The notes under the pieces: model-generated
Told to the model about the DNA's origin: nothing
Seen by the model: the letters and a program-made list of their open reading frames with translations, nothing else
Database searches by the model: none
In this document: in pieces, positions 41,918 through 57,467 of the stretch
How positions within the stretch are numbered: the first letter of the stretch is position 1
How the letters are laid out: the number at the start of each line of letters is the position of its first letter
Program-made: the position numbers and the translations under genes
Assembly (NCBI GenBank): GCA_963677595.1
Contig: OY782041.1
Coordinates: 1,792,001-1,856,000 of the forward strand
Source of the DNA: Spirochaetia bacterium
Lineage (GTDB): Bacteria; Spirochaetota; Spirochaetia; CAKZLE01
Direction of reading: 5' to 3'
Length of the DNA: 64,000 nt

Positions 41918-41925
41918 GGGAACCA

Positions 41926-43035
41926 ATGAACGACAATGAAAGACGCGACACGATCATGATCGTGGATGATACACCGGCTAACCTGAAAGTGCTGCAGGAA
42001 CTCCTCCTCGAGGAGGGATACCGGGTGGTAGCCTTCCCAAGGGCCCCGATGGCGATCAAGTCACTCGACCGGACGCAGCCTGACCTGATCCTCATGGACA
42101 TCATGATGCCGGACATGGATGGCTTCGAGGCCTGCCGGGTCATCAAGTCGATGCCGGGTGGGAAGGATATACCGATCATCTTCCTCAGTGCCCTGAGCGA
42201 TACCCTGGATAAGATCAAGGCCTTCGGGTCCGGGGGGGTGGATTACATCACCAAGCCCTTCCAGAAGGATGAGGTCGTCGCCAGGATCCATACCCATATC
42301 AGCATGCGGCGGATGCAGCAGGAGCTCTCCCGCCATAACCGGGAGTTGACGAAGATGGTGGATGAGAAGGTGCGGGAGATCTCAGACTCACAGCTCTCCA
42401 CCCTGGTGGCCATCACCAACCTCTCGGAATCCCGCGACAACTTCACCGGCAAGCACATCGAGCGGACCGGTATCTTCTGCAAGGTCATCGCCGAGGAGAT
42501 GATAGCACGGGGGCTCCACCCCGATATCGTCGACGAGACCTTCGTGAAGAACCTCTACCATGCGGCCCCCCTCCATGACATCGGGAAGATCGGTATCCCC
42601 GACCACATCCTGCTGAAGAAGGGGCGGCTCACCGATGAGGAGTTCGAGATCATGAAGGCCCATACGACCATCGGTGCGATGACGCTGCGGAACGTCCTCG
42701 AGATGTACCCGCAGAACGCCTTCATCCACCTCGGGATCGAGCTGGCGATCTCCCACCACGAACGGTGGAACGGGAGGGGGTACCCCTCCGGCCTCAAGGG
42801 TGAGGCGATCCCGGTCTCGGGCAGGATCATGGCCTTAGCCGATGTCTATGATGCCGTACGGTCACGTCGACCCTACAAGGAGCCGGTCTCCCACGCTGAT
42901 ACGGTCGAGATCATCAAGGGTGAGCGAGGCTTCCACTTCGATCCCCAGGTCGTCGATATCTTCCTCGACAAGGGGGCTGTCTTCGAGGAGATCAGCGTGA
43001 AGATGAAGGACTCCGACGAGGGGTCGTTCACCTGA
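41926..43035 (+). CDS. RpfG-like response regulator with HD-GYP cyclic-dinucleotide phosphodiesterase domain
   Basis: IMIVDD, MDIMMPDMDG REC; APLHDIGKIGIPD, HHERWNGRGYP, ADVYDA. Confidence 0.93.
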   Translation: MNDNERRDTIMIVDDTPANLKVLQELLLEEGYRVVAFPRAPMAIKSLDRTQPDLILMDIMMPDMDGFEACRVIKSMPGGKDIPIIFLSALSDTLDKIKAFGSGGVDYITKPFQKDEVVARIHTHISMRRMQQELSRHNRELTKMVDEKVREISDSQLSTLVAITNLSESRDNFTGKHIERTGIFCKVIAEEMIARGLHPDIVDETFVKNLYHAAPLHDIGKIGIPDHILLKKGRLTDEEFEIMKAHTTIGAMTLRNVLEMYPQNAFIHLGIELAISHHERWNGRGYPSGLKGEAIPVSGRIMALADVYDAVRSRRPYKEPVSHADTVEIIKGERGFHFDPQVVDIFLDKGAVFEEISVKMKDSDEGSFT

Positions 43036-43330: not shown

Positions 43331-44326
43331 TCAACTCTCCCGTTCGATGAGTTCCGGGGTATAGACGACCGTCTTGGTGAATGAGACCTTCTGGTCTATC
43401 AGGTCGAGCAGGGCGTTCGCGCTCTCGTAGCCGAGGCTGTACTTCGGCACCCTGATTGTGGTGAGCTTCGGGATGGTCATCTCACTCATCTCTACATCGT
43501 CATGGCTGATCACGTTCACCCGTCCCGGGATGTCTATCTTCAGGTCATAAAGCGCCCGCAGGACCCCCATGGCCATCTGGTCGTTATAGACGAAGATCGC
43601 GTCGGTATCCGGGTGGCTCTGCATGAGGGTGACCGTCGATGCGTAGGCTGCCTCCATCGAGCTGTCGCACTGGAGGATCCTGCCCCGCTCAAGCTCGATG
43701 CCGGACTCCTTTAGCTGCTCCTTATAACCTTTGAGACGATCCCGGTTGCAGGAGACCTTGAGGTGGAACCCGATATAAGCGGGCTTCGTCCTGCCTTTAC
43801 TGCAGATATACTCCGCGGCTAGCCGGCCGCTCCGGTAGGAGTCGGTGATGAAGTAACTCTGGGTATTGAGGTTCCCCTTCCTGACGATGGTAATATGAGG
43901 TACATGGAGCTGGTCATAATCGAGTTCGCTGACCAGGTCCTGGGACGGGACGATGAGCAGCCCCGCGACCCGGTTCGCCGCGAGGGTACGGAGCATCCGG
44001 CTCTCCCGCTCGAGGTCCTCGTTGCTGCTCAGCGCGAGGATCGTGTAGCCCGACTTCACGATGGCATCATTGATCCCCTGGAGGATCTTCGCATAGAAGG
44101 CATTGTCGATATGGGTGACCACGACCCCGATGGTCTTCTTCGACTGGGTGCGCAGGTGGCTTGCCGAGGCGTTCGGGATATACCCGAGCTCATCGGCGAT
44201 CTTCCTGATCCTCCGCTTCGTCTCCTCCCCGATGTCGCTCTTGTCCTGGAGAGCCCGGCTCACGGTATTGATCGAGACCTTGGCCTTGTCTGCAATATCC
44301 TTCAGGCGTACGTAACCCATCAGCAT
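43331..44326 (-). CDS. LacI-family transcriptional regulator
   Basis: VRLKDIADKAKVSINTVSRAL, GYIPNASASHLR, PKLTTI. Confidence 0.95.
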   Translation of the reverse strand: MLMGYVRLKDIADKAKVSINTVSRALQDKSDIGEETKRRIRKIADELGYIPNASASHLRTQSKKTIGVVVTHIDNAFYAKILQGINDAIVKSGYTILALSSNEDLERESRMLRTLAANRVAGLLIVPSQDLVSELDYDQLHVPHITIVRKGNLNTQSYFITDSYRSGRLAAEYICSKGRTKPAYIGFHLKVSCNRDRLKGYKEQLKESGIELERGRILQCDSSMEAAYASTVTLMQSHPDTDAIFVYNDQMAMGVLRALYDLKIDIPGRVNVISHDDVEMSEMTIPKLTTIRVPKYSLGYESANALLDLIDQKVSFTKTVVYTPELIERES

Positions 44327-44340
44327 CTCCCCCTAATGCC

Positions 44341-44352
44341 ATTAACGTTAAT
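44341..44352. promoter_or_regulatory. LacI operator (autoregulatory copy)
   Basis: ATTAACGTTAAT perfect palindrome. Confidence 0.7.
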
Positions 44353-44424
44353 CCTATTATAGATTATTTTTATACGTGTAATAAAGAGCAGAATAGTGAT
44401 ATTCATGATTTTCTCATTTATTGT

Positions 44425-44453
44425 TTGACAAATATGGGATTCGATCCTATACT
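44425..44453 (+). promoter_or_regulatory. Sigma70-type promoter of the 44.5-56.2 kb operon
   Basis: TTGACA-N17-TATACT. Confidence 0.8.
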
Positions 44454-44457
44454 TTCA

Positions 44458-44473
44458 ACATTAACGTTAATGT
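44458..44473. promoter_or_regulatory. Main LacI operator
   Basis: ACATTAACGTTAATGT perfect 16-bp palindrome over the expected +1. Confidence 0.8.
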
Positions 44474-44494
44474 AACGTACAAAAGGAGAATCTT

Positions 44495-45772
44495 ATGAAC
44501 AAACGACTGATGCTTACGCTCTTCGTCGTGCTCTGCCTGGCATTCCCTGCCGCCCTCACGGCACAGGGACAGACAGAAGGAGAGGCAGCCCCGGAGAAGG
44601 TAACATTCTTTCACTACTTCTCAGGGACCCTCGCCGGTGGGATCGACGATCTTGTGGGCAATTTCAATGCGGAGAACCCGGAGTATGAACTGACCCATAC
44701 CCCCGTGGACCATGAGGCCTTCAAGACCTCCATCAGGGTCATGCTCTCCGGCGGCAATCCGCCGACCCTCTTCTCATACTGGGCCGGGGCACGGGTACAG
44801 TTCATCGTGGATGCTGACAGGCTCGAACCCATCGATGATGTCTATGAAGCATTCGGCTTGAACGATACGTTCAGCGAGGCTGTCAAGATGGGGGCAACCT
44901 ATAACGGGAAGACCTACTTCATGCCGCTGACACAGCATTATGTACCCTTCTTCTATAACAAGGCTGTCTTCGAGGCGGCCGGGGTCACCCCTCCGGCAAC
45001 CTGGGATGAGTTCCTCACCGTCTGTGAGACCCTCAAGTCACAGGGGATCGTCCCGATCGCCCTCGGCTCACGGGAACGATGGCCGGCACAGTTCTGGCTC
45101 GACTACCCGCTGCTGCGGACAGCAGGACCTGCCTACCGTGCAAACCTCATGAACGGAGAAGCCTCCTATACCGACCCCGAGGTCGTGAAGGCTTTCGGTA
45201 TCTGGAAGGAACTGCTGGACAAGGGCTATTTCAACGAGGACCCCAACGCCTATGACTGGGCTGAGGCAGTCACGATGGTCGGGACCGGGGAAGCAGCCAT
45301 GACCCTCATGGGTACCTGGTTCATGCAGCTTGACGAGCAGATCGGCTGGGAAGCCGGTAAGGATTACGATTACTTCCCGTTCCCCGTCATCGACCCGTCA
45401 GTGCCGGATGCCGCAGTCGGACCGATCGACGGTGTCGTGCTGGCTAAGGATGGTGATGCCAAGGAAGCCGGGAAGGAAGTACTCGGCCAGCTCGCAGGGA
45501 AGGGGCCGCAGGCGACCTTCAACAGCGGGACCGGTGCACTGGCCCCCAACAGCGAGGTCTCCGACGATATCTACAATGCCCTCCAGCTCGACGTGAAGGC
45601 GTACCTCGCGACCGTCCCCAACTGGGCATACAACTATGACCTGGCAACCCCTCCGCCGGTAGCGGATGTCGGCCTCGATGCATTCACGAAGTTCATCGAC
45701 GGGCCTGCCGCCTACCTCGATATCCTCTCGGATACCCAGAAAGGCGCAGAAGCGGCCTTCGCGAACCTCTAG
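44495..45772 (+). CDS. Carbohydrate ABC transporter substrate-binding protein
   Basis: Signal peptide ending AQGQTE; FFYNKAVF, PATWDEF, GEAAMTLMGTW. Confidence 0.93.
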   Translation: MNKRLMLTLFVVLCLAFPAALTAQGQTEGEAAPEKVTFFHYFSGTLAGGIDDLVGNFNAENPEYELTHTPVDHEAFKTSIRVMLSGGNPPTLFSYWAGARVQFIVDADRLEPIDDVYEAFGLNDTFSEAVKMGATYNGKTYFMPLTQHYVPFFYNKAVFEAAGVTPPATWDEFLTVCETLKSQGIVPIALGSRERWPAQFWLDYPLLRTAGPAYRANLMNGEASYTDPEVVKAFGIWKELLDKGYFNEDPNAYDWAEAVTMVGTGEAAMTLMGTWFMQLDEQIGWEAGKDYDYFPFPVIDPSVPDAAVGPIDGVVLAKDGDAKEAGKEVLGQLAGKGPQATFNSGTGALAPNSEVSDDIYNALQLDVKAYLATVPNWAYNYDLATPPPVADVGLDAFTKFIDGPAAYLDILSDTQKGAEAAFANL

Positions 45773-45783
45773 GAACCGTATCT

Positions 45784-45816
45784 TCCTGTGATGTAGCGAT
45801 CGGCTGCATCACAGGA
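45784..45816. terminator. Intercistronic stem-loop after the SBP gene
   Basis: TCCTGTGATGTAGC-GATCG-GCTGCATCACAGGA. Confidence 0.65.
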
Positions 45817-45845
45817 GCCTTCTTACCCCAGATTAAGGATACTGC

Positions 45846-46712
45846 ATGAAACAGAAACTACTTGCCTGGCAGTTCCTCGCGTTGCCGCTGGCGATCTACG
45901 CAGGAATCATCATCATCCCGTTCTTCGGTTCGATCGTCTACAGCTTCACCGACTGGAACGGTATCTCCGAGACCTGGAACTTCATCGGGCTGAAGAACTA
46001 CCTGAGGGTGTTCACGGACGTGAACTTCAAGGGGGCCCTGCTCCACAACGTGGTCTGGGTCATCTTCTTCCTCGGCATCCCGACGCTCTTCGGGCTCCTG
46101 ATGGCAGTCCTCCTCGATTCGAAGGTGAAGGGGGCGACCCTCTTCAAGTCGGTCATCTACCTCCCCATGATCTTCTCCTACGTCATCGCAGGAATGATCT
46201 GGACCTTCATCTATGAACCGAGGCTTGGCATCATCAACCTGGCCCTCTCCCGAGTCGGCCTTGACGGGCTTACCACCGCGTGGCTGGCTAACCCTGATAC
46301 GGCCCTCATCTCAGTCATCCTCGTTGCTGCCTGGCAGCATACGGGACTGTGCATGATCCTCTTCCTTGCCGGGCTGCAGGGCGTCCGGTCCGACCTCATC
46401 GAGGCGGCACAGCTCGACGGCTGCGGAGAGCGGCAGGTCTTCTGGCATGTCGTCCTGCCGCAGCTCTCGAACTCGGCGATCATCGTCATCTCCCTGACGG
46501 TGATCAACTCGCTCAAAAGCTTCGACATCGTCTATATCATGACCAAGGGCGGGCCGTTCAGGTCCTCTGAGGTGCTGACGACCCTGATGTACCGCGAGGC
46601 TTTCTGGAACTACCAGATGGGCTACGGGAGCGCGGTAGCGAACATGCTCTTCTTCATCGTACTGGGGATCATATTCCTCTATCTCAGGACCCTGGTAAAG
46701 GAGGGGAAGTGA
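45846..46712 (+). CDS. Carbohydrate ABC transporter permease
   Basis: SFTDWNG, DLIEAAQLDGC EAA loop, MTKGGP. Confidence 0.93.
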   Translation: MKQKLLAWQFLALPLAIYAGIIIIPFFGSIVYSFTDWNGISETWNFIGLKNYLRVFTDVNFKGALLHNVVWVIFFLGIPTLFGLLMAVLLDSKVKGATLFKSVIYLPMIFSYVIAGMIWTFIYEPRLGIINLALSRVGLDGLTTAWLANPDTALISVILVAAWQHTGLCMILFLAGLQGVRSDLIEAAQLDGCGERQVFWHVVLPQLSNSAIIVISLTVINSLKSFDIVYIMTKGGPFRSSEVLTTLMYREAFWNYQMGYGSAVANMLFFIVLGIIFLYLRTLVKEGK

Positions 46713-47548
46713 TGCAGACAGCTAAGAATCCGCTAAAGAGAGCAGTGATCTACCTGGTCATCCTGCTCCTCTGCCTCATCTTCCTCATCCCCGTCTACGG
46801 GGCGGTGACCACGGCATTCCGGCTCAACAAGGAGATCATCCACGAGGGATTCTGGGTGCTGCCCTCGAGCCTCACCTTCGAGAACTTCCAGAACGTCCTC
46901 TCTGACGGGAAGCTCCTCGGTTTCCTTCGGAACACCTTCCTGGTGACCGGTACGGCTACCGTGGTATCGATCGCGCTCGGCTGCCTGACAGGTTACGCCT
47001 TCGGGAAGCTCGAGTTCAAGGGGAGCGGCCCGCTCTACCTCGTCGTCATCGCGGGCATGTTCTTCCCGCCGCAGGTCGTGCTCATCCCGCTCTTCAAGCT
47101 CTTCAACACCCTGCACCTGCTCGATACAGTCTGGGCCCTGATCCTGGTCCATGTCGGCTTCGGTCTGCCGATCTGCACCCTCATGATGACCAACTTCTTC
47201 AAGGACATCCCGGATGCCCTGAGGAGTTCGGCGAGGATCGACGGCTGCAGTGACTGGGTGATCCTGCGGAAGATCATGCTCCCGCTGGCGAAATCGTCGA
47301 TCACTGCCCTGGTCATCCTGCAGTTCACCTGGATCTGGAACGACTTCCTCTGGCCGCTGGTCATGGTCAAGTCGGAGTCGAAGATGACGATCCAGATGGG
47401 GATCATGCAGATCAGGGGACAGTACGGGCTCGCATGGGGCAACCAGGCGGCAGCCTGCCTGCTCGCGACGATCCCGACCCTCCTGCTCTTCATCTTCATG
47501 CAGAAGTACTTCATCAGAGGGCTGACCATGGGGGCGGTGAAAGAATGA
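46712..47548 (+). CDS. Carbohydrate ABC transporter permease
   Basis: IPDALRSSARIDGC, WNDFLWPL, QKYFIRGLTMGAVK. Confidence 0.93.
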   Translation: MQTAKNPLKRAVIYLVILLLCLIFLIPVYGAVTTAFRLNKEIIHEGFWVLPSSLTFENFQNVLSDGKLLGFLRNTFLVTGTATVVSIALGCLTGYAFGKLEFKGSGPLYLVVIAGMFFPPQVVLIPLFKLFNTLHLLDTVWALILVHVGFGLPICTLMMTNFFKDIPDALRSSARIDGCSDWVILRKIMLPLAKSSITALVILQFTWIWNDFLWPLVMVKSESKMTIQMGIMQIRGQYGLAWGNQAAACLLATIPTLLLFIFMQKYFIRGLTMGAVKE

Positions 47549-47579
47549 GTGGTATACATACGAAAGTGAGGTTTGATTC

Positions 47580-49475
47580 ATGAGACAAGAGATACAAACA
47601 GATACTGTCAGCAGGAGGAGGGTCCGTGCCCGTGCAGTCGCACAGGCAGGCTCCCTGCAGCAGGCAGTCCTTACCGGGCTGATAGAACAGTTCGAGGACC
47701 TGACGATGAATGAGGTGCTCGTCCTCGGGCTCATCAACCAGGAAGTGCGAACCTTCATCGGCATCTTCGGGCACGGCTCGACCGACCTCGGCGAGGTGCT
47801 GCGGGTCTATGAGGAGGAAGGGCTGCTGAAGGTGATCCCCGTCCACAACGAGGTGATGGCCTCCCATGTCGCGTCCATGCTCGCATGGAAGCACGGGGAG
47901 CGTCCTGCCGTGTTCACGTCGATCGGGCCGGGAGCCCTCCAGGCAGCGGCAGGTTCACTGGTGAGCCTCTCCAACGGGCTGGGGGTCTACTACCTCTTCG
48001 GGGACGAGACGACCCACAACGAAGGGCCGAACATGCAGCAGATCCCGAGGAAGGAACAGGATCTCTACCTCCGGCTCCTCTCGACTCTCGGCAAGGCCTA
48101 TTCGGTCGCTGAGCCGCGGTCGATCTATACTGCCCTGAAGTGGGGGTATGCGGCGGTGAACGACCCCGCAGGCCATACGCCCTTCTTCCTGTTGCTCCCG
48201 ATGAACGCGCAGAGTACGGTCATGGAAGGGAGCAACCTGCTCGAGATACCTGCCCCTAAGGCATCATCACCACAGGTTTCCTGCGATGAGCGGCTCTTCA
48301 AGGATGCAGTTCGTGCGATCTCCACACATGACCGGATCCTCGTGAAGATCGGCGGGGGATCGCGGGATGTCCCGGAAGCGCTGCTCTCCGAGTTCGTGGA
48401 AGCGACCGGGGCCGTGCTGGTCCATGGGCCGAACGTGTCGGGGAGACTCCCCTATGGACATGGGCGGAACATGGGGGTCGGCGGGTCGAAAGGATCGATC
48501 TGCGGCAATTATGCTATGGAACACTGCGACCTGCTGATCAGCATCGGGGCACGGGGTGTCTGCCAGGCAGACAGCTCAGGAACCGCGTGGAAAGAGGTGA
48601 GGCAGGTGGTCAGCATCAATACCGAATGTATCGATGCCTACCAGTACAACCGTACGATCCCGCTGCTCGGGGACGCCGCCCTCGTCATCGGGAAGCTGCT
48701 TGGGCATCTTGGGAAGGTGCCGGTATCAGGGGAGAAGCAGGCATGGATCGATGTCTGCAGTGCCCGGAAGGAGCGCTGGCGGGAATACAAACGGGAACGG
48801 TATGACCATCCCGTCCTCTTCGATGAGGCCTTCGGCAGGAAGGTGCTGACCCAGCCGGCGGCGATCCGCTGCGCTGTGGGGTTCGCCGATGCCATCGAGG
48901 CCTGCAAGGTCTTCGATGCAGGGGATGTCCAGGCGAACGGCTTCCAGATCGTGGAGGACAGCTCCTACGGGAGGACCATAACCGATACCGGTTCCTCCTA
49001 CATGGGCTTCGCCGCCAGCGCGATCCTCGCCCATGCGTTGGTCGATACCGAAGAGTATGCGATAGCCTTCACCGGGGACGGGAGCTTCCTCATGAATCCC
49101 CAGATCCTCAGCGATGCCGTACAGTACGGGCTCAAGGCCATGGTCATCATCTTCGACAACCGGAGGATGGGAGCCATCTCGAGCCTCCAGAAGGCCCAGT
49201 ACGGTATAGACTACGCCACCAACGATTCCGTCGCTGTCGATTACGTGCAGCTAGCCTCCTCGTTCGCAGGGGTGAAGGGGATCTTCGGCGGCTATGACAC
49301 ACAAACACTGAAACAGGCCCTCGTGGAGGGGTATGAGTATAACGGACTGTCTGTGATCCACGTGCCGGTCTACTTCGGGGATGACCCGAAAGGCGGCCTG
49401 GGGACCTTCGGTTCCTGGAACGTCGGATGCTGGTGTGACGCAGTACAGCAGGAAAAACATAGGATAGGACTGTAG
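47580..49475 (+). CDS. ThDP-dependent enzyme, divergent IolD-like (cyclic 1,2-dione acylhydrolase family)
   Basis: GIFGHGS, HNE..ASH, TSIGPGA, GSSYMGFA, GDGSFLM...FDNRRMGAI ThDP motif. Confidence 0.78.
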   Translation: MRQEIQTDTVSRRRVRARAVAQAGSLQQAVLTGLIEQFEDLTMNEVLVLGLINQEVRTFIGIFGHGSTDLGEVLRVYEEEGLLKVIPVHNEVMASHVASMLAWKHGERPAVFTSIGPGALQAAAGSLVSLSNGLGVYYLFGDETTHNEGPNMQQIPRKEQDLYLRLLSTLGKAYSVAEPRSIYTALKWGYAAVNDPAGHTPFFLLLPMNAQSTVMEGSNLLEIPAPKASSPQVSCDERLFKDAVRAISTHDRILVKIGGGSRDVPEALLSEFVEATGAVLVHGPNVSGRLPYGHGRNMGVGGSKGSICGNYAMEHCDLLISIGARGVCQADSSGTAWKEVRQVVSINTECIDAYQYNRTIPLLGDAALVIGKLLGHLGKVPVSGEKQAWIDVCSARKERWREYKRERYDHPVLFDEAFGRKVLTQPAAIRCAVGFADAIEACKVFDAGDVQANGFQIVEDSSYGRTITDTGSSYMGFAASAILAHALVDTEEYAIAFTGDGSFLMNPQILSDAVQYGLKAMVIIFDNRRMGAISSLQKAQYGIDYATNDSVAVDYVQLASSFAGVKGIFGGYDTQTLKQALVEGYEYNGLSVIHVPVYFGDDPKGGLGTFGSWNVGCWCDAVQQEKHRIGL

Positions 49476-49476
49476 C

Positions 49477-50643
49477 ATGAAACCAATACGTGTAGGATTT
49501 ATCGGGTGCGGCAGGATCTCGGATCTCCATTACCTCGGGTATAGGGACCGGGAGGACGCGAAGGTGGTCGCCGTCTGCGACACCAATGAGGCGGCAGCCG
49601 CCGCGAAGATGGGCGAGTGGGGCGCTGAGTACTCCACGACCGACTACCGGAGGATCCTCGAGGATCCCTCCATCGATGCGGTGGAGATACTCACCCCGCA
49701 GAAGCTCCATGAGTCGATGTCGATCGAGGCGCTCGAACGGGGGAAGCACGTGCTCGTGCAGAAACCGATGACCATCAGCCTGGAGAGTGCCGACCGGATG
49801 ATCGCGGCAGCGAAAGGGAGCGGGAAGACGTTCAAGGTCATGGAGAACTATATCTTCTACCCGCCGATCATGAAGGCTAAAGAGCTCATCGAGGAGGGGA
49901 GGATCGGGGAGCCGATCAGCATGAGGATCAAGTTCATCAGCGGTTCCTCCGGCGGCTGGGCCATCCCTGAGGAGTCCTGGGCCTGGAGGCTGGAGGAGAA
50001 CGTCGAGGGCCGCGGGATCCAGACCTTCGACCATGGCTTCCATATGTGGTCCACGGCCTGGTTCTTCATGGGGGAGGTGGAACGGGTCGTCGCCTGGATC
50101 GACTCGATCGACAACATCGTGGACTGCCCGGCGACCATCATGTGGAAGTACAAGGGGGGCAAGCAGTACGGGACCTGTGATTATACCCATGCCTGGGAGC
50201 TGGCCATCCCCTCTGACTACTATGCCAACGATGAGTGGTTCGAGATCACCGGCTCGAAGGGGGTCATCAAGGTCAACCGGTGCACCGGCCTGGTCCAGGA
50301 GGGCCCGTCAGTGAGCCTCTTCACCGATGAGGGCTGGGAGCACTTCTCTGACATCGAGTCGGACTGGGCTTCAGGCTTCATAGGGGCTACCGGGAACTTC
50401 ATCGATGCCATGCAGGGGAAGCGTACCCCCATGCTCAGCGGGGCTGATGCCCGCGAGATCATGAAGTTCAGCTTCGCGATCCAGAAGGCATCGAAGGAGC
50501 GGCGCGAGGTCTACCTCGACGAACTTGATGCCGAGGACCCCGAAGCCTACACGGCAGAGAGGATCGTGGAGGAGAAGGTGACGGCAGGCAGCCGGAAGAT
50601 CCTGACCCTCGATGAATTGAGAGCCTACCAGAGAATTCTGTAG
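49477..50643 (+). CDS. Gfo/Idh/MocA-family oxidoreductase
   Basis: GFIGCGRIS, GKHVLVQKP, DHGFH. Confidence 0.92.
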   Translation: MKPIRVGFIGCGRISDLHYLGYRDREDAKVVAVCDTNEAAAAAKMGEWGAEYSTTDYRRILEDPSIDAVEILTPQKLHESMSIEALERGKHVLVQKPMTISLESADRMIAAAKGSGKTFKVMENYIFYPPIMKAKELIEEGRIGEPISMRIKFISGSSGGWAIPEESWAWRLEENVEGRGIQTFDHGFHMWSTAWFFMGEVERVVAWIDSIDNIVDCPATIMWKYKGGKQYGTCDYTHAWELAIPSDYYANDEWFEITGSKGVIKVNRCTGLVQEGPSVSLFTDEGWEHFSDIESDWASGFIGATGNFIDAMQGKRTPMLSGADAREIMKFSFAIQKASKERREVYLDELDAEDPEAYTAERIVEEKVTAGSRKILTLDELRAYQRIL

Positions 50644-50684
50644 TACCGGGACATAAGGAAAAGAAGCAAAACAAGCGTATAGGT

Positions 50685-52094
50685 ATGAGTGAGAACATGA
50701 ACGTTAATGTAGAACAGATGATAGACGATATGATGAACAGGGCCCGTACGGCCCAGAAACGCCTCGAACATGCTACGCAGGAGGAGGTCGATACCCTCTG
50801 TGCCCATATCGCATGGGCAGGTATACAGGAAGACTTCGTAGAAGAGTTCGCAGCCCTGGCAGTCGAGGAGACCGGACTCGGCAGGGTGGAGAGCAAGAAG
50901 GCGAAGATCAGGACGAAGACCAAGGGGGTCTACCGCGACCTCAAGGGGAAGAGAAGTGTCGGGATCATAGAGGAGGACCTTGACCGGGGTATCGTGAAGA
51001 TCGCCAAGCCCGTCGGGGTCATCGGTGCCCTCATCCCCTGCACCAACCCCGAGGCCACCCCCTTCTGCAAGGCCCTGGCTGCGATCAAGACGAGGAATGC
51101 CATCATCATGGCACCGCACCCGCGGGCGGTGCGGACCGGGAAGATGGCAGTGGACAGGATGCGGAAGGTCCTCGAGTCCTTCGGCTACCCGGCTGACCTC
51201 ATCCAGGTCATGGAGAAGGTCAGTGTGGAGGCGAGCGGGAAGCTCATGGAGGCCTGCGACCTCATCATCGCCACCGGGGGAGGCGGGATGGTGAAGGCTG
51301 CCTACAGCAGCGGCACCCCTGCCTACGGTGTCGGCGCGGGGAACGCGGTCGTCATCGTCGATGAGACGGCGATACCCGAAAAGGTCGCTGATGACGTGAG
51401 GCGCTCCAAGACCTTCGATTACGCGACGAGCTGTTCGGCTGAGAACTCACTGGTCATCGAGGAGACGATATACGATAGGCTGGTTGACGCACTCACCGAG
51501 GAGCATGGGTACCTGCTGGATACCGGGGAGAAGGGACTCCTGCAGAAGGCCCTCTGGCCTGACGGTATCCACCTCAACCGTGAGGTCGTGGCACAGCCGG
51601 CATCGAGGATCGCGGAACTTGCCGGTATAACCATCCCCGAGGGAACCGAGTTCCTGATGGTAGAGGAGACCGGTTTCGGGAGTGCATACCCCTTCTCAGG
51701 GGAGAAGCTCTCCGTGGTCCTGACACTCTACCGGTATACCGAATTCATCGATGCCGTGGGACTCGTCAAGGGGATCACCGCATTCTCCGGTGCCGGCCAC
51801 TCCTGCGGTATGCATACTGCAGACCGGGAGCGGGCTGTAGCCCTCGCCGAGGCCGTCCCGGTCTCCAGGGTCATGATCAACCAGCCGCAGTGCCTGGCGA
51901 ACAGCGGGGCATGGTCGAACGGTATGCCGATGACCCTGACCCTCGGCTGCGGTACCTGGGGTGGGAACATCTCGAGCGAGAACATCGGCTGGAAGCAGAT
52001 GATGAATACCACCTGGGTCTCTTTCCCCATCGAGGCAGGGGAGCCCGACGATCGGGAACTCTTCGGCGAGCAGTTCCTGCAGCTACGCTACTAG
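50685..52094 (+). CDS. CoA-acylating aldehyde dehydrogenase (SauS/AdhE-ALDH-like)
   Basis: PCTNPEAT, GVGAGN, SKTFDYATSCSAENS, GEKLS, LGCGTWGGN. Confidence 0.88.
   Translation: MSENMNVNVEQMIDDMMNRARTAQKRLEHATQEEVDTLCAHIAWAGIQEDFVEEFAALAVEETGLGRVESKKAKIRTKTKGVYRDLKGKRSVGIIEEDLDRGIVKIAKPVGVIGALIPCTNPEATPFCKALAAIKTRNAIIMAPHPRAVRTGKMAVDRMRKVLESFGYPADLIQVMEKVSVEASGKLMEACDLIIATGGGGMVKAAYSSGTPAYGVGAGNAVVIVDETAIPEKVADDVRRSKTFDYATSCSAENSLVIEETIYDRLVDALTEEHGYLLDTGEKGLLQKALWPDGIHLNREVVAQPASRIAELAGITIPEGTEFLMVEETGFGSAYPFSGEKLSVVLTLYRYTEFIDAVGLVKGITAFSGAGHSCGMHTADRERAVALAEAVPVSRVMINQPQCLANSGAWSNGMPMTLTLGCGTWGGNISSENIGWKQMMNTTWVSFPIEAGEPDDRELFGEQFLQLRY
50695..50710. promoter_or_regulatory. Internal copy of the LacI operator inside the ALDH 5' end
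   Basis: ACATGAACGTTAATGT, 15/16 match to 44458-44473. Confidence 0.6.
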
Positions 52095-52103
52095 GGGCCT
52101 GAA

Positions 52104-53666
52104 GTGGTGAAAGATCATAGAGAGACCCTGCTGAGGATCAGCAGGGAGGCAGAATCGGGCGGCGGGTCCGCCAGGATGGAATCACAGCACCAGAAGGGAA
52201 AGTTGACGGCACGGGAGCGTATAGCCGTGCTGCTCGACCCGGGGTCCTTCGGGGAGATAGACAAGTTCAGGCTGCATGACTGCCATGACTTCGACATGAA
52301 GGAGAAGTCATACTACGGGGACGGGGTGGTCACGGGGTTCGGGACGATCGAGGGGACCGATGTCTTCGTCTATGCCCAGGACTTCACGGTCCTCGGGGGA
52401 TCGCTCTCCCGTTCGCATGCGAGGAAGATCTGCAAGGTCATGGATATGGCCGCCGACGCAGGGGCACCGATCATCGGTCTCAATGATTCCGGGGGAGCCC
52501 GGGTCCAGGAGGGAATCGACGCGCTTGCCGGCTATGGGGAGATCTTCTTGCGCAACGTGCGCTACTCCGGGCTCATCCCCCAGATCACGGCGATCCTCGG
52601 GCCCTGCGCCGGCGGGGCGGTCTACTCCCCGGCCGTGCAGGACTTCGTGCTCATGACAAGGCGCACCAGCCATATGTTCGTCACGGGGCCGAAGGTGGTG
52701 AAGACCGTCCTCCATGAGGATGTCACCACTGCGGACCTCGGCGGTGCCCAGGTCCACGGGACGGTCAGCGGTGCCGCCCATATCGTGAAGGAGACCGAGC
52801 ATGAGGTCATCGAGGAGATCAGGAGGCTCGTCTGCTTCCTCGCAAGGAAGGAGGTGGCAGAACAGTCTCTCCCCAAGAAGAAGGAGCCGGTGTTCAAGCG
52901 GCCTGCGAAGCGGGAATCCCTCTGGGACATCATCCCCGGGGACCTGCGGAAGCCGTACAACATCAGGGACGTGATCACGCAGGTCATAGACATCGAGTCC
53001 ATGATCGAGATCTCGCAGGACTTCGCGAAGAACATCGTGACCTGTTTCGCGCGGATCGGCGGGATCGGCATCGGCATCATCGCCAACCAGCCGAACCACT
53101 TTGCCGGCGTCCTTGACATCAAGGCATCGAGGAAGGCAGCGCGGTTCATCCGGTTCTGCGATGCCTTCGGGGTCCCGATCGTCACATTGGAGGATGTCCC
53201 GGGGTTCATGCCGGGGAAGGACCAGGAGCAGAACGGGATCATCGTGAACGGTGCGAAGCTGCTCTATGCCTATGCGGAGGCTACCGTGCCGAAGCTTACC
53301 GTCATCCTGCGGAAGGCCTATGGCGGGGCCTACATCGTGATGAGCAGCCGGCACCTGCTTGCCGACATGGTCTTCGCCTGGCCGCATGCCGAGATCGCGG
53401 TCATGGGGGCCGAGGGGGCTGTGGAGGTCCTCTACAGCAAGCAGGCCGGCAGCAATGGGCAGGTGACTGAGCATGAGTTCAGGCAGCAGAAGATCCAGGA
53501 GTACTCCGACTTCTTCCTCAACCCCTACCGGGCTGCGGAGAAGGGGTATATCGACGCGATCATCGACCCGGATGAGACACGGGAGCGGCTGCTGGGGGCC
53601 TTGCGGCTCTTCGCTGCGAAACAGCAGGTACTACCTGCAAAGAAACATGGGAACATACCCTTATGA
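52104..53666 (+). CDS. Acyl-CoA carboxyltransferase (PccB/MmdA-like)
   Basis: QDFTVLGGS, DSGGARVQEG, GPCAGGAVYSPA, DVPGF, RKAYGGAY, KKHGNIPL. Confidence 0.93.
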   Translation: MVKDHRETLLRISREAESGGGSARMESQHQKGKLTARERIAVLLDPGSFGEIDKFRLHDCHDFDMKEKSYYGDGVVTGFGTIEGTDVFVYAQDFTVLGGSLSRSHARKICKVMDMAADAGAPIIGLNDSGGARVQEGIDALAGYGEIFLRNVRYSGLIPQITAILGPCAGGAVYSPAVQDFVLMTRRTSHMFVTGPKVVKTVLHEDVTTADLGGAQVHGTVSGAAHIVKETEHEVIEEIRRLVCFLARKEVAEQSLPKKKEPVFKRPAKRESLWDIIPGDLRKPYNIRDVITQVIDIESMIEISQDFAKNIVTCFARIGGIGIGIIANQPNHFAGVLDIKASRKAARFIRFCDAFGVPIVTLEDVPGFMPGKDQEQNGIIVNGAKLLYAYAEATVPKLTVILRKAYGGAYIVMSSRHLLADMVFAWPHAEIAVMGAEGAVEVLYSKQAGSNGQVTEHEFRQQKIQEYSDFFLNPYRAAEKGYIDAIIDPDETRERLLGALRLFAAKQQVLPAKKHGNIPL

Positions 53667-53679
53667 GAAGGAAGAAGAT

Positions 53680-54579
53680 ATGAGAGTACAGGAACATCCT
53701 GGGATACGGAACGACCAGGATCGCAGGCTGCTGGACAGACTGGCAGCCGGGGAGACTCTGGGTGCAGGGGAGCTGGCCTATGCAGCCAGAAGGATCAGGG
53801 AACTGATCCTCCACACGACACATACCGCGGGAGCAGGGCATACAGGAGGATCCCTCTCAGAGGTCGAGATCCTGACCCTGCTCTTCTTCAAGCACCTGCA
53901 CATCGACCCGGCAGACCCCCGGATGGGGAACCGGGACCGGTTCATCCTCTCCAAGGGGCATGCCACACCGGGATACTACTCGACGCTTGCCTACCGGGGT
54001 TTCTTCGACCTGGAGGTGCTTGCCTCCTTCGACAGCCTCGGCAGCATCCTGCAGGCCCACCCGGACATGCACAAGGTCCCGGGCTGCGACATCTCCTCAG
54101 GATCCCTGGGACAGGGACTCTCCTGCGGGATCGGGATGGCACTCGGGGCTGCAAAATCGGGAGTAGAGAACATGGTCTATGTCCTGATGGGGGACGGCGA
54201 GAGCACCGAAGGACAGATCTGGGAGGCAGCCCTCTACGCGGGGGCAAAGAACCGGAAGGTGAAGAACCTGGTCGCGATCGTGGACAACAACCGGGTACAG
54301 CTGGCATCACACACGAAGGATGCAGTGGATCTCGGGGACCTCGCAGGGAAATATGAGGCTTTCGGCTGGTCTGCAGTCACCTGTGACGGCCATGACATCA
54401 CGGCACTTGATGCCGCGTTCACCAGGGCACGGAGAATGGCGGCAGATGGGCCGGTGGCGGTGATCGCGAACACGGTGAAAGGGAAGGGTGTCTCCTTCAT
54501 GGAGGATACCTGTTCCTGGCACGGCAGGGCCGCGAATGATGAGGAGTATGAACTGGCGATGAGGGAATTACATGGATAA
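53680..54579 (+). CDS. Transketolase, N-terminal (ThDP-binding) subunit
   Basis: GHTGGSLS, DRFILSKGHA, SGSLGQGLS, GDGESTEGQIWE, TVKGKG; start MRVQEH. Confidence 0.92.
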   Translation: MRVQEHPGIRNDQDRRLLDRLAAGETLGAGELAYAARRIRELILHTTHTAGAGHTGGSLSEVEILTLLFFKHLHIDPADPRMGNRDRFILSKGHATPGYYSTLAYRGFFDLEVLASFDSLGSILQAHPDMHKVPGCDISSGSLGQGLSCGIGMALGAAKSGVENMVYVLMGDGESTEGQIWEAALYAGAKNRKVKNLVAIVDNNRVQLASHTKDAVDLGDLAGKYEAFGWSAVTCDGHDITALDAAFTRARRMAADGPVAVIANTVKGKGVSFMEDTCSWHGRAANDEEYELAMRELHG

Positions 54580-55534
54580 GGACATTAGGATGAGATACCC
54601 GCAATTGGGTGATGAGATGATGCCGAGGACGGCGATGGGGGAGGCCCTGGTGGAACTTGCCGACAGGTTCCCCAACCTGATGGTCTTCGATGCCGATGTC
54701 TGTGCATCGACACAGACGGTGAAGTTCAGGGATGCATTCCCTGAGAGGTTCTACCAGATGGGAATCGCGGAGTCGAACATGGTGGGTGCCGCCGCGGGCA
54801 TGGCGACCTATGGGTTTACCCCCTTCGTCTCGACCTTCGCAGTCTTTCTGGCAAAGCGCGCGCTGGACCAGATACGGGTCTCGGTAGCCTACCCGAAGCT
54901 GGACGTGAAGCTCAATGGGGCATACGGGGGACTTCCCACCGGCAGGGCTGGTGCTACCCACTCGGCAGTGGCGGATATAGCAGTGATGCGGGCGATGCCG
55001 CACATGAGGGTGCTCGTCCCGGCTGATTCCGTGGAGACGAAGAAGGCCGTGGAGCTCTCGCTCTCAACAGACGGGCCTGTCTACCTGCGGACCGTCCGGT
55101 GTCCGGTTCCCACGATCTTCACCGGGAACCATGAGCCGGCATGGGGGAAGGGGATCACCCTTACCGAAGGGCAGGATGCCGCGATCATCTCGACCGGGAT
55201 GATGACCCCCTATGCGCTCTTCGCAGCAGAACAGCTTCGGAGCGAGGGGATCCACGTACGGCATATACACCTGGCGAGCATCAAACCGATCGACCGCGAG
55301 GTCATCATCAAGGCCGCGAGGGAGACCGGGACGATCTTCACCGTCGAGAACCACAGCATCATCGGCGGGCTTGGGGGAGCCGTTGCGGAGATCGTGGGCA
55401 GGGACTACCCCTGCAGGGTCCTCCCGATCGGGTTCACCGACCGGTTCATGGAATCGGGTGACGACAATACGATATTCTCTTCCTTCTCACTGGATACGGA
55501 AGGGATCAAGGCATGTGTCAGGAGGGCATTGTAA
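54572..55534 (+). CDS. Transketolase, C-terminal subunit
   Basis: GIAESNMVGAAAG, RALDQIR, GATH, GPVYLR, ENHSIIGGLG. Confidence 0.92.
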   Translation: MDKDIRMRYPQLGDEMMPRTAMGEALVELADRFPNLMVFDADVCASTQTVKFRDAFPERFYQMGIAESNMVGAAAGMATYGFTPFVSTFAVFLAKRALDQIRVSVAYPKLDVKLNGAYGGLPTGRAGATHSAVADIAVMRAMPHMRVLVPADSVETKKAVELSLSTDGPVYLRTVRCPVPTIFTGNHEPAWGKGITLTEGQDAAIISTGMMTPYALFAAEQLRSEGIHVRHIHLASIKPIDREVIIKAARETGTIFTVENHSIIGGLGGAVAEIVGRDYPCRVLPIGFTDRFMESGDDNTIFSSFSLDTEGIKACVRRAL

Positions 55535-55538
55535 GGAT

Positions 55539-56168
55539 ATGAAGATAGCAGTGATAAACGAAGTGAGTGCATCGGCAAGGAATGGTGATATTATCAGGGC
55601 ACTGGAGGAGAGGGGACACGAAGTGTTCAATGTCGGGATGACCGACCCTGCTTCTGTTCCACAGCTGAGCTACATCCACACGGGTCTGCTGGCAGGTCTG
55701 CTCCTCTACACGAAGCGAGTCGATTTCGTCGTCGGCGGCTGCGGGACCGGACAGGGCTTCCTCAATGCGGCCATGCAGTACCCGGGAGTGTTCTGCGGGC
55801 TGGTAGTCGACGCGCTTGATGCCTGGCTCTTCACCCAGATCAACGGCGGGAACTGTATCTCCCTCCCGCTGAACAAGGGTTACGGCTGGGCAGCCGATAC
55901 CAACCTGCAGTTCATCTTCGACCGGATCTTCAGCGTGGAACCAGGCTGCGGGTACCCGGAGCACCGGAAGGAGCCGCAGAAGGCCTCCCGGATACTCCTC
56001 CAGGAACTTTCGATGATCTCACATCGACCGATGCATGAGATCCTGAGAGACCTCCCGGAAGAGATCACCAGGCCTGCATTGACCTACCCCGGCATCCTCG
56101 GGATCCTCGACCCCGAAACACTGGAGGATACGAGGCTTGCACAGGTCATAAGGGATATAACGGCATAA
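55539..56168 (+). CDS. RpiB/LacA/LacB-family isomerase with C-terminal extension
   Basis: MKIAVINE, LSYIHTG, GGCGTGQG, QINGGN, KGYGWA, GYP. Confidence 0.88.
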   Translation: MKIAVINEVSASARNGDIIRALEERGHEVFNVGMTDPASVPQLSYIHTGLLAGLLLYTKRVDFVVGGCGTGQGFLNAAMQYPGVFCGLVVDALDAWLFTQINGGNCISLPLNKGYGWAADTNLQFIFDRIFSVEPGCGYPEHRKEPQKASRILLQELSMISHRPMHEILRDLPEEITRPALTYPGILGILDPETLEDTRLAQVIRDITA

Positions 56169-56199: not shown

Positions 56200-56239
56200 G
56201 GAGCCGTCACTCCACTACAAGCTGTGGCGGCTCCCTTTT
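56200..56239 (+). terminator. Rho-independent terminator
   Basis: GGAGCCGTCAC...GTGGCGGCTCC followed by CTTTT; lies between convergent genes. Confidence 0.65.
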
Positions 56240-56272: not shown

Positions 56273-57370
56273 TCACAGAGCCTTCAGCTGAGTTATCAAT
56301 ACTGAGATCTCATCATCCTTGAGGCATTGCGGATTCACAGCAATGTAATCGCTCTCAATACCGACAAACACAGAAGTCTCAGAATCGAATAATCTTGATT
56401 TTATCTCTTCTGAGGGGATAGAGTCCCATTGTATATAGGCCCTGGGGATGTTAGCCGGCTGAATACCAGGTTCGACAGGATACCCTTTCCTGATCGTGAT
56501 GCCTGGTTTGTCCTTCAGTTGATCTAAGATGTGATCAGTGATGCTGTTCCACCGCTCCATATCCTTGTCAAAATCCCGTTCTGCAAAGAGTTCGACTGCC
56601 CTGACAAACCCTGCGATCGTCTCTTTGTCGATCTTCATGGGGCGCCCGATGCTGTGATGAGGACAGCAGTTCGCATCACAGGCCTCAATCAGCTCTTTCC
56701 GACCGACGATGACCCCTGAGGACTGCGGTCCTCTGATCTCCTTGCCTCCGCTGAAAACAACCAGGTCTGCCCCGATCTCGAGGTACTTGGTGATGTTCTC
56801 TCTTGGAGGGAGTTCAGCCGCAGCATCGACAATGACAGGGATATTATGTTTTTTCATAATAGGCATGATATCGTTCAGGTCCAGAGATCCTCTCATTGGT
56901 TCAGCTTCTGATGCATAGAAAAAGAAGGCAATATTCCCGGAGACGGCGTTCTCGATCATCTCGGTACAGGCGAATGAAGTCGTACCGACCTCCTTGAACC
57001 TGACCCCTGATTGAAGCAGTGCCTGGTCATACAGGTTCCTATGGGATTTCAGGACCAGAGCTTCACTCTTCATTCCCGTTGTATCAGGAAGTTGAAGGAT
57101 GCAGGCTTTATTGGTACCGGCAACACATGCTGCAGCGCTGATCGCCATACCGGCTGCTGCACCACTGGTGATACAAGCTGCCTCGACACCCAACAGTGAT
57201 GCGACTCGTTCCCCTGCATGCTTATGGAGCTTGTCTATATCTATGAAACAGGTGGAAGCTTCTTTCATAGTTTCCAGGACTGACGGATCCATGAGGGATC
57301 CTCCCAGCATGGTAAGGGTTCCTCCCGCATTGATCACCGGCTTTATTGATAGTTTTTCGTATATCGTCAT
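56273..57370 (-). CDS. SelA-like PLP enzyme (DgaE, D-glucosaminate-6-phosphate ammonia-lyase family)
   Basis: INAGGTLTMLGGS, SGAAAG, VDAAAE, FSGGKEIRGPQ (PLP Lys), IGRPMKIDKE. Confidence 0.82.
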   Translation of the reverse strand: MTIYEKLSIKPVINAGGTLTMLGGSLMDPSVLETMKEASTCFIDIDKLHKHAGERVASLLGVEAACITSGAAAGMAISAAACVAGTNKACILQLPDTTGMKSEALVLKSHRNLYDQALLQSGVRFKEVGTTSFACTEMIENAVSGNIAFFFYASEAEPMRGSLDLNDIMPIMKKHNIPVIVDAAAELPPRENITKYLEIGADLVVFSGGKEIRGPQSSGVIVGRKELIEACDANCCPHHSIGRPMKIDKETIAGFVRAVELFAERDFDKDMERWNSITDHILDQLKDKPGITIRKGYPVEPGIQPANIPRAYIQWDSIPSEEIKSRLFDSETSVFVGIESDYIAVNPQCLKDDEISVLITQLKAL

Positions 57371-57413
57371 ATGCACCTCATTCTAGTTACTATTAAATCA
57401 CTAAAAAAAAGAT

Positions 57414-57442: not shown

Positions 57443-57467
57443 GTTTGTAACATTCTCTTGATTAACT

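Follow-up and report, generated by a model that had tools for sequence, protein, structure and literature searches.

The window analysed here, a 64,000-nucleotide stretch of a Spirochaetia bacterium contig, carries an operon that we read, with a probability of about 0.5, as a kinase-free route splitting a C5 acid into pentose phosphate and acetyl-CoA, the acid coming from a probable five-membered-ring polyol. Within this reading, the C5 intermediate and its exit through malonate semialdehyde are probable, and a cyclopentane-dione as substrate of the central thiamine diphosphate (ThDP) enzyme is about an even bet. Gene content, co-occurrence, family boundaries and motif changes were observed directly, and from these we infer every reaction. 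An earlier, sequence-only reading had proposed a kinase-free carboxylate analogue of the sulfoglycolytic transketolase (sulfo-TK) pathway and had asked for co-conservation of its genes. The kinase-free route survives as one of C5 type, however, the conserved full combination and descent from sulfo-TK do not.

The eleven-gene cluster is confirmed, with all previously listed members present (Table 1). From the first permease onward intergenic gaps range from -8 to +41 nt, the gap between the solute-binding protein (SBP) and first permease genes is 73 nt, and GC content drops from 0.60 to 0.47 past the terminator-like hairpin. The palindrome ATTAACGTTAAT is exact at both operator positions and, with one mismatch allowed, has three matches in the window vs 0.03 expected by chance; its core TTAACGTTAA occurs in 13 of 220 loci (11 distinct), all within the 13 homologous loci that bear LacI, where the LacI orthologs are 49-70% identical. 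The proposed LacI control of a tightly packed operon therefore has sequence support. IolE, IolB, IolC, IolJ, MmsA, a biotin carrier and an ABC ATPase are all missing from the cluster, as had been stated for the first five, and a kinase-free route, with a transketolase (TK) in it, is supported. The earlier gene assignments hold, although three key names must be tempered because the proteins score below curated cutoffs: 149 bits on IolD TIGR04377 (cutoff 715), 552 on SauS NF047625 (600) and 714 on MmdA TIGR01117 (999). All five plasmid matches of the SBP at 46% identity or more lie in ThDP-family loci, and five of five plasmid matches of the Gfo/Idh/MocA (Gfo) dehydrogenase adjoin the ThDP gene. 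No close characterized relative of the SBP, the Gfo, the Zn dehydrogenase or the Mo subunit emerged from the PDB.

Table 1. Features of the operon and its flanks (window positions; functions are predictions)
Feature	Position	Strand	Basis or remark
LacI-family repressor, divergent	43331..44326	-	Pfam LacI + Peripla_BP
LacI-type operator copy 1, ATTAACGTTAAT	44341..44352	.	core conserved in homologous loci
sigma70-like promoter TTGACA-17-TATACT, 11/12	44425..44453	+	consensus match only
LacI-type operator copy 2, ATTAACGTTAAT	44460..44471	.	directly 3' of -10 box
CUT1 SBP	44495..45772	+	Pfam; closest solved relative AcbH
CUT1 permease	45846..46712	+	profile match
second CUT1 permease	46709..47548	+	profile match
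ThDP enzyme, IolD-related uncharacterized family; predicted ring-opening hydrolase	47580..49475	+	
Gfo dehydrogenase, dedicated to ThDP gene; predicted entry oxidation	49477..50643	+	
CoA-acylating aldehyde dehydrogenase (ALDH), SauS-like; predicted malonate semialdehyde to malonyl-CoA	50685..52094	+	
MmdA/PccB-type carboxyltransferase (CT), no biotin partner nearby; predicted malonyl-CoA decarboxylation	52104..53666	+	
TK N-terminal subunit (TK-N)	53680..54579	+	
TK C-terminal subunit (TK-C); GRAGATHS (124-131) replaces GEDGxSx	54572..55534	+	
long RpiB-type (PRK09273) ketol isomerase, similar to gbs1892 (4U8E)	55539..56168	+	
terminator-like hairpin	56220..56232	+	

In the proposed pathway a polyol, probably a five-membered cyclitol or its ether, would be imported by the CUT1 system with an ATPase supplied in trans and oxidized by the Gfo dehydrogenase. 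From there 3,4-dihydroxycyclopentane-1,2-dione would arise in one of three ways: an O- or N-linked group is lost, the compound is oxidized a second time, or a dehydratase encoded elsewhere acts on it. The ThDP enzyme would hydrolyse this dione to 3,4-dihydroxy-5-oxopentanoate (OHC-CHOH-CHOH-CH2-COO-). The isomerase would convert this to HOCH2-CO-CHOH-CH2-COO-, from which TK would pass two carbons to glyceraldehyde-3-phosphate, giving xylulose-5-P and malonate semialdehyde (OHC-CH2-COO-). The acylating ALDH would turn the latter into malonyl-CoA, from which the CT would release acetyl-CoA and CO2. A biotin carrier encoded elsewhere would probably take part in this step, either AccB or OadA working with the OadB sodium pump; the alternative is a slow reaction that needs no carrier. 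From chemistry of the IolD type it follows that the substrate would be a five-membered carbocycle, with acyclic routes still conceivable. Against this, such cyclitols are sponge lipids in the literature consulted (PMC6163716) and fit gut and peat organisms poorly.

The ThDP enzyme is, judged by its sequence, a member of an uncharacterized family that is distinct from IolD and has IolD-type motifs. The host genome (G000) has a separate true IolD elsewhere (955 bits), and in a quick tree, which cannot resolve placement between IolD and AHAS, the family stands apart from the IolD sequences instead of among them, as a clade of its own with a long branch; the kinship asserted earlier is supported at the level of motifs, and the enzyme is not IolD itself. 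The motifs FGHG, NE, TSIGPG, GD, QQ, DNxxxxxIxxLQ and WxV are kept. Among conserved family columns, 27 are common to IolD only (8 IolD-type rows) and 15 to AHAS-like proteins only (7 AHAS-like rows), while 116 occur in neither, which counts against the IolD-type reading. Ring opening by an IolD relative, as previously suggested, is thus predicted from motifs and those 27 columns. An AlphaFold model (pLDDT 86) matches AHAS, HACL, POX and CDH about equally at 16-20% identity, and because of this even matching and the absence of an IolD structure from the matches listed, the fold is uninformative on substrate. Cyclohexane-1,2-dione hydrolase (CDH) uses ThDP to open a cyclic 1,2-dione and so forms an aldehydo-acid. 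Its structures (2PGN/4D5E) share the fold (TM 0.75), however, at ~18% identity they are no closer than AHAS or HACL structures, and the ring that CDH opens is six-membered and unhydroxylated. Matches in the ESM Atlas had generic names only. The gene occurs in none of five same-family genomes and the family in 25 of 400 sampled genomes of the phylum (spirochaetes), as well as in Chloroflexi, gut Lachnospiraceae, Alphaproteobacteria and others, from gut, sediment and marine habitats. A literature search, with subscription journals mostly outside its coverage, found no description of the family or cluster, which does not prove novelty.

A census of 157 homologous loci, in which labels follow identity thresholds to our own reference proteins and related loci are not independent, shows a conserved core of ThDP and Gfo genes that is served by four interchangeable exits, TK among them. 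Beside the ThDP gene the dehydrogenase recurs in 90/157 loci, the isomerase in 81/157 and TK in 50/157; the acylating ALDH and the CT do not recur, each found in 1/157 and never together in homologous loci, which makes them local recruits. Their pairing beside the ThDP gene was seen in this window only, and this counts against our explanation. MmsA is present in 29 loci, every one of which also has TK, and the three MmsA proteins tested pass TIGR01722 (570, 556 and 477 vs cutoff 448.5). Besides MmsA+TK, the downstream modules are ALDH+IlvD, isomerase+BKACE, and isomerase with SDRs and thiolase. IlvD occurs in 24 loci, none with TK, RpiB or MmsA; BKACE also occurs in 24, all with RpiB and none with TK. 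This pattern is unchanged when the loci are dereplicated at 95% (130 groups) or at 80% (89 groups). Loci with IlvD and loci with TK alternate on the ThDP tree, and the MmsA proteins themselves are spread over several deep clades. A single C5 product, 3,4-dihydroxy-5-oxopentanoate, is the simplest explanation of all four exits; on chemical grounds ALDH+IlvD would convert it to 2,3-dihydroxyglutarate and then 2-oxoglutarate. The BKACE and CoA-ligase/FabG-like/thiolase/CoA-transferase modules match the two oxidative 2-deoxyribonate routes of PMC6365646. In other genomes the ThDP gene is followed by these sets of enzymes, which points to a 2-deoxy-pentonate skeleton. As described there, those routes differ in being fed by deoxyribose and having no ThDP step, whereas the exit in the window is TK. 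Two further observations count against our reading: 21 of the 50 TK loci show no visible MmsA, which contig ends explain in some cases and not all, and a TIM-barrel dehydratase/isomerase was found, by our references, in only 4/157 loci.

Isomerase and TK leaving a (methyl)malonate semialdehyde, as the sequence-only reading had it, agrees with MmsA always being accompanied by TK. In favor of our reading, no MmsA over cutoff was found in the host genome; against it, none was found in the five genomes with the most similar loci either, and only one of these has a close ALDH homolog. In the window ALDH+CT likely replaces MmsA, because the ALDH groups with homologs from pyrimidine degradation and malonyl-CoA-decarboxylase contexts. 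The SauS cutoff does not discriminate here, since the ALDH of the host's own sulfo-TK cluster also falls below it (532). With locus L210 left aside, the ALDH tree places the protein of the window (FastTree support 1.0) among homologs whose genes are linked to pyrimidine, transaldolase or CT genes, and not with the ALDHs of sulfonate clusters; an acylating, SauS-like ALDH is retained from the earlier description, a sulfonate affiliation is not. One homolog in its clade stands first in an operon for reductive pyrimidine degradation, which encodes PreA and dihydropyrimidinase, both scoring over cutoff, and a class III aminotransferase; another lies between a transaldolase and a lone CT, and a further one faces a transaldolase. 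In another genome (G452) a 58% identical homolog heads a complete MmdA/biotin-carrier/sodium-pump-beta operon, and this operon shares its contig with a ThDP-TK locus ~21 kb away. The ALDH of locus L074 (49% identical) falls outside the clade, which counts against this view. The operon has no sulfoacetate-CoA ligase. The CT scores 604 bits on Pfam Carboxyl_trans and resembles that of the sodium-translocating (methyl)malonyl-CoA decarboxylase MmdABCD, of which the window has only the CT; no sodium-pump beta, gamma or delta subunit lies nearby, and the single beta subunit of the host is at C1:1,336,971, beside OadA. The earlier proposal of ALDH+CT as a malonate-semialdehyde sink is thus strengthened by these contexts and by MmsA occupying that slot elsewhere.

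The odd-carbon logic of the sequence-only reading is likewise supported because the C5 product fits all four exits and ALDH+CT likely replaces MmsA. Its doubt about myo-inositol, which would leave a C4 aldehyde, was justified by carbon counting; a C5 skeleton fits better than the C7 cyclitols and sulfoquinovose that it also named. Carbon counting alone also sets aside quercitols, which would again leave C4; 3-keto-glycosides and anhydrosugars, whose products would be ethers; 3-deoxyglucosone and KDG, which lack an aldehyde at the end and would make the isomerase needless; quinate; and C7 chains, for which the IlvD exit would need more enzymes. Queuine was set aside as probably too scarce.

In the motif GEDG, Glu has given way to Lys or Arg in 32 of 34 distinct split TK-C proteins, counting that of the window, vs one of seven other TK-C proteins of the host, and all seven fused TKs have K/R one position earlier. 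This fits a carboxylate-binding site. The isomerase passes PRK09273 (198 vs a cutoff of 137 bits) and matches gbs1892 with E 5e-47. We take gbs1892 to be DhuI. The Acholeplasma variant of sulfo-TK (SqvD, SqwGH, SqwI, SqwD, SqwKL, SqwE; PMC11659671) likewise combines a split TK with an RpiB-family isomerase. The 4-deoxy aldose on which they act is unphosphorylated and ends in an anionic group, and an acylating ALDH follows. The predicted C5 acid would be the carboxylate counterpart of sulfoerythrose. The window, however, lacks the sulfoquinovosidase, SQ isomerase, CoA ligase and exporter, and adds the ThDP enzyme, Gfo and CT. The host's own sulfo-TK cluster (C1:1.453-1.472 Mb; YihQ-family glycosidase, SftI-like isomerase, ALDH, SucCD-like ligase, DASS, short RpiB) is not orthologous: its ALDH is 46% identical and its TK subunits 42/36%, with RpiB not detected at 1e-15. 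The analogy with sulfo-TK therefore holds chemically and fails by descent, given the other ALDH clade and the short RpiB.

Several alternatives must be weighed against the five-membered ring. The same C5 product and downstream route could be reached, in what we judge an unlikely though serious alternative, if the ThDP enzyme acted on an open chain, either decarboxylating a C6 2-keto acid (a DHU/DEH-type unsaturated-uronate product or a 5-keto-uronate) or carrying out an internal redox reaction on a pentodialdose, with Gfo or a Mo enzyme providing one oxidation. The isomerase is closest to gbs1892 and is followed in gut loci by a KduD-like SDR, CUT1, GPH and TRAP transporters suit sugars and uronates, a pentose or hexuronate plus one oxidation has the right formula, and most structural neighbours of the ThDP enzyme act on 2-keto acids. 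However, the selected neighbours scanned (81 and 103) included no family of polysaccharide lyases or unsaturated-uronyl hydrolases, the ThDP family keeps IolD-only motifs, many carriers do not look like sugar specialists, and an SCP2 domain is present in 32 of 90 Gfo proteins. Six-membered cyclitols are abundant, and a rare inositol, quercitol or O-methyl inositol opened to a C6 deoxy-uronate would accord with IolD and IolG being the best named matches, with the IolE-like TIM barrels or IolM-like dehydrogenases of a few loci, and with the two split TKs adjoining the host's IolD cluster. The window further shares with myo-inositol catabolism Gfo oxidation, an IolD-motif ThDP enzyme, ketol isomerization and the step from malonate semialdehyde to acetyl-CoA, but its ThDP enzyme is ~25% identical to IolD, an RpiB-type isomerase and TK stand in for IolE, IolB, kinase and aldolase, and the predicted chain is C5 and not C6. 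TK acting on a C6 2-deoxy ketose-acid would leave a C4 aldehyde that MmsA cannot decarboxylate, so the odd carbon would have to be lost later or a housekeeping transaldolase would have to reshuffle the chain, and no transaldolase recurs among clustered neighbours. As BKACE needs a beta-keto acid, and ALDH+IlvD would need an aldolase that is annotated in none of the three annotated plasmid loci, we regard this version as quite improbable.

MmsA and MmdA-type CTs accept both malonate and methylmalonate substrates, which allows a C-methyl (C6 branched) homologue passing via methylmalonate semialdehyde and methylmalonyl-CoA to propionyl-CoA. For such a homologue the IlvD exit would stop at a methyl-oxoglutarate that no enzyme takes further, and the ALDH homolog in the pyrimidine operon fits either chain (uracil or thymine); we consider this reading very unlikely. 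Least credible is a sulfonate pathway, a further sulfo-TK route with a ThDP enzyme that desulfonates its substrate as Xsc does and an ALDH that is SauS/SqwD in the strict sense. The SauS score of the ALDH is in its favor, as is a gut-locus DASS transporter 56% identical to the SqwE-like exporter of the host, a match that also led us to drop this transporter as an anion importer. Yet the host already has a full sulfo-TK cluster with an ALDH of another clade, Xsc is not among the best 25 of 44 NCBIfam matches of the ThDP protein, and MmsA, IlvD, BKACE and CT make no sense for sulfoacetaldehyde.

If the five-membered-ring reading is correct, and we advance this wider claim more tentatively, the operon would represent the first catabolic pathway for five-membered cyclitols, comprising a ThDP hydrolase family, four exits, and an ALDH subfamily that with CT substitutes for MmsA. 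The dione could then derive from an overlooked widespread metabolite, an ether-lipid head group (crasseride- or calditol-like), or uronate-derived cyclopentenones, and the SCP2-fused dehydrogenases would point to lipids. No characterized member of this compact, conserved ThDP family was found. The four independent downstream modules allow a prediction of its product, which makes a precise assay possible. A common natural substrate that microbiologists have not named is implied. Additionally, a subfamily of “sulfoacetaldehyde dehydrogenases” likely oxidizes malonate semialdehyde to malonyl-CoA; if so, anaerobes without MmsA would gain a route for uracil, beta-alanine and deoxy-sugar-acid carbon, coupled in some genomes to a sodium pump. 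Separately, the ThDP protein P0003 and the ALDH P0272, whose longest contigs have equal length (17,357), may mark a second ThDP+ALDH locus.

The operon is real and represents an apparently undescribed variant of cyclitol-type catabolism, and a literature search in which subscription journals were thinly covered returned no description of the ThDP family or of the cluster. What is new here is the apparent convergence of four downstream modules on a C5 acid, a change in the transketolase (TK) motif, and an acylating aldehyde dehydrogenase (ALDH) with a carboxyltransferase (CT) apparently in place of MmsA; the C5 acid, as predicted intermediate of the operon, is testable. All eleven genes listed in the sequence-only reading were found where it had placed them, with the true starts of TK-N and the isomerase at 53680 and 55539. 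Intergenic gaps range from -8 to +41 nt between the first permease and the operon end, which is closed by a terminator-like hairpin and a fall in GC from 0.60 to 0.47. Two exact copies of ATTAACGTTAAT lie one on each side of the promoter region, and its core is also present in 11 of 13 homologous loci bearing LacI.

Loci discussed in the text, including the flanks of the operon (G000, genome of the window; C1, its contig; L-numbers, loci)
Feature	Location	Content
Long ORF before the operon	window 37643-43035	very long, sensor kinase-like (from translation only), then response regulator with HD-GYP-like domain
Lower-GC block (~0.47), separate catabolic unit	window 56273-63052	DgaE/SelA-like PLP enzyme, GntR, RidA, CUT1 transporter, amidohydrolase
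G000 IolD cluster	C1:626,000-654,000	canonical IolD (C1:647,019), only a weak IolB-like gene; adjoins two split transketolases, PGK, GAPDH
G000 sulfo-TK cluster (L196)	C1:1,453,400-1,472,050	YihQ-family glycosidase, SftI-like isomerase, acylating ALDH, SucCD-like ligase, DASS, CUT1, split TK, short RpiB
G000 second lone CT	C1:3,154,415-3,155,887	MmdA/PccB-type, 52% to the window's; no biotin partner nearby
G000 near-duplicate cassette (L197)	C1:3,983,700-3,991,000	ALDH, ligase, DASS; faces class III aminotransferase
G371 locus	L214:6417-13431	transaldolase, acylating ALDH, lone CT, near SDR and Zn dehydrogenase genes
G080 reductive pyrimidine operon	L215:9360-18405	
G452 run	L226:3602-8942	acylating ALDH first, small unassigned gene, MmdA, small subunit, biotin carrier, sodium-pump beta subunit
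Plasmid Zn dehydrogenase loci	L228:11968-18977; L229:5406-14452	creatininase/M24-family hydrolases, TIM barrels, anion transporters

By its sequence, the ThDP enzyme of the operon belongs to a family of its own. Its IolD score of 149 bits lies far below the cutoff of 715, and its 120 best listed homologs, the named ones being from Lachnospiraceae, spirochaetes, Vecturithrix and Bacteroidetes, are full length and 56-96% identical. When 1.84 billion representatives were searched with a profile, family members of full length scored above 500 bits, and the best of the remaining full-length proteins, IolD or AHAS-like, came to about 185 bits; seven plasmid records carry the family at 47-49% identity, the next matches (mostly annotated iolD) falling to about 25%. 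A quick tree places the family alone on a long branch and does not settle whether IolD or AHAS is its sister, and 27 of its conserved columns are common to IolD alone, 15 to AHAS-like proteins alone and 116 are its own. As G000 holds a separate true IolD (955 bits), the operon's ThDP gene does not encode the inositol enzyme of the cell. Carriers of the family that exist in culture include Labrenzia sp. THAF191b, Phaeobacter piscinae S26, Sinorhizobium terangae CB3126, Blautia sp. An249 and Oceanispirochaeta sp. M1. No IolC over cutoff was found in the G000 genome, and the cluster around the true IolD is possibly another kinase-free inositol route.

We compared 157 homologous loci, of which species genomes supplied 49, plasmids 4, metagenomes 80 and a phylum sample 24, with neighbours labelled by identity to reference proteins; many are cut by contig ends, and 78 retain at least 4 kb upstream and at least 5 kb downstream. 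Among them we counted the Gfo/Idh/MocA dehydrogenase (Gfo) 90 times, long RpiB 81, TK 50, MmsA 29, IlvD 24, BKACE 24, and Zn dehydrogenase and Mo-enzyme large subunit 13 each. Acylating ALDH and CT were each found once, so the full gene combination that had been read as one pathway is not conserved around the ThDP gene. The sole CT match, in the IlvD locus L031, has an OadA-like neighbour and is probably unrelated.

The downstream modules are mutually exclusive. MmsA is found only with TK (29/29 loci), BKACE with RpiB (24/24) and never with TK, and IlvD with none of TK, RpiB or MmsA (0/24); dereplicated to 130 groups, the respective figures for MmsA with TK, BKACE with RpiB and IlvD with any of the three are 23/23, 19/19 and 0/24. 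The interleaving of IlvD and TK loci on the ThDP tree argues for one ThDP product, and on chemical grounds 3,4-dihydroxy-5-oxopentanoate (OHC-CHOH-CHOH-CH2-COO-) would be compatible with all four exits. In exit A, an isomerase and then TK would leave malonate semialdehyde to MmsA. In exit B, an ALDH would give 2,3-dihydroxyglutarate and IlvD 2-oxoglutarate, with no extra enzyme required; an ALDH lies inside 7 of the 24 IlvD loci, and three annotated plasmid loci have ALDH and IlvD with no aldolase. Exit C would proceed by isomerase, cupin (at a guess, a 4-keto to 3-keto isomerase), BKACE and an ADP-forming ligase to glycerate and acetoacetate, and exit D by isomerase with KduD-like and FabG-like SDRs, the gut loci of this last type bearing CoA ligase, thiolase or CoA transferase, differing by locus. 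The two 2-deoxyribonate routes in the available part of PMC6365646 match the modules of exits C and D. A C6 product, by the same chemical reasoning, would fail exits A, B and C unless extra enzymes were assumed.

The TK of the ThDP loci looks adapted, judging from its motif, which is GEDG(A/P)S in solved TKs and GRAGATHS, with Arg125 as its second residue, in the window's TK-C. Of the 34 distinct TK-C proteins encoded by split TK genes in ThDP loci, 32, spread over two clades, have Lys or Arg in the Glu column, and the two exceptions belong to gut loci with YNGG or FNGG. Among the other TK-C proteins of G000 only one of seven has Lys or Arg there; in fused TKs the K/R stands one position earlier (7/7). 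The clade of the window has also lost the Asp of the motif. The group that this Asp binds is the aldehyde's 2-hydroxyl, which is absent from malonate semialdehyde.

We read the operon's ALDH and CT as a putative two-step stand-in for MmsA, of which G000 has none over cutoff. Against this, 21 of the 50 TK loci show no MmsA as C3 sink, and none of the five genomes with the most similar loci has MmsA over cutoff. The three closest ALDH homologs among 400 phylum genomes are 57-61% identical. These three, from genomes G080, G371 and G120, form one clade with the window's ALDH, apart from the two sulfonate-type ALDHs of G000: the first, a SauS-like protein, opens a reductive pyrimidine operon, which suggests a passage of uracil carbon to malonyl-CoA, the second has a transaldolase on one side and a lone CT on the other, in a locus that could serve the kinase-free breakdown of a C6 2-deoxy-5-keto acid, and the third faces a transaldolase. 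G452 has a ThDP-TK locus without MmsA and, about 21 kb off on the same contig, a 58% ALDH homolog whose gene run is a candidate sodium-pumping malonate-semialdehyde sink. As possible partners for discharging the carboxyl of the lone CT, G000 offers the biotin domains of AccB and OadA and a single OadB.

As regards substrate, one cut creates both chain ends in IolD chemistry, which together with a C5 product would imply a cyclopentane-1,2-dione. Linkage to the ThDP gene is seen on plasmids for both the SBP and the Gfo family, and the closest solved relative of the SBP is AcbH, which prefers galactose. Of 90 Gfo proteins, 32 are fused at the C-terminus to an SCP2 domain (loci L006, L061, L175 and 29 others), and most of these fusions come from loci with BKACE or a GPH transporter. 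Together with the YhhN and FadL genes that border a few ThDP loci, they hint at a lipid-linked substrate form. Among candidate sources, sponges contain five-membered cyclitol ether lipids (available part of PMC6163716) and heat-modified pectin contains 4,5-dihydroxy-2-cyclopenten-1-one (available part of PMC10696011). The latter would suit entry by the Zn dehydrogenase/Mo-enzyme, which was found with Gfo in 0 of 13 cases. A Zn dehydrogenase 63-74% identical to the gut-locus one also occurs on plasmids without the ThDP gene, and its role is thus uncertain.

The operon had been described as a carboxylate analogue of sulfo-TK. It may be regarded as an analogue but not as sulfo-TK itself, as it consists of other parts and G000 has a separate sulfo-TK cluster. 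The latter (C1:1.453-1.472 Mb) matches the Acholeplasma-type pathway in the available part of PMC11659671 and is apparently complete, with the YihQ-family glycosidase at 753 bits vs 553 and the SftI-like isomerase below cutoff. The ALDH of the near-duplicate cassette elsewhere on the contig is 95% identical to the sulfo-TK one, and this cassette possibly serves the conversion of taurine to sulfoacetate.
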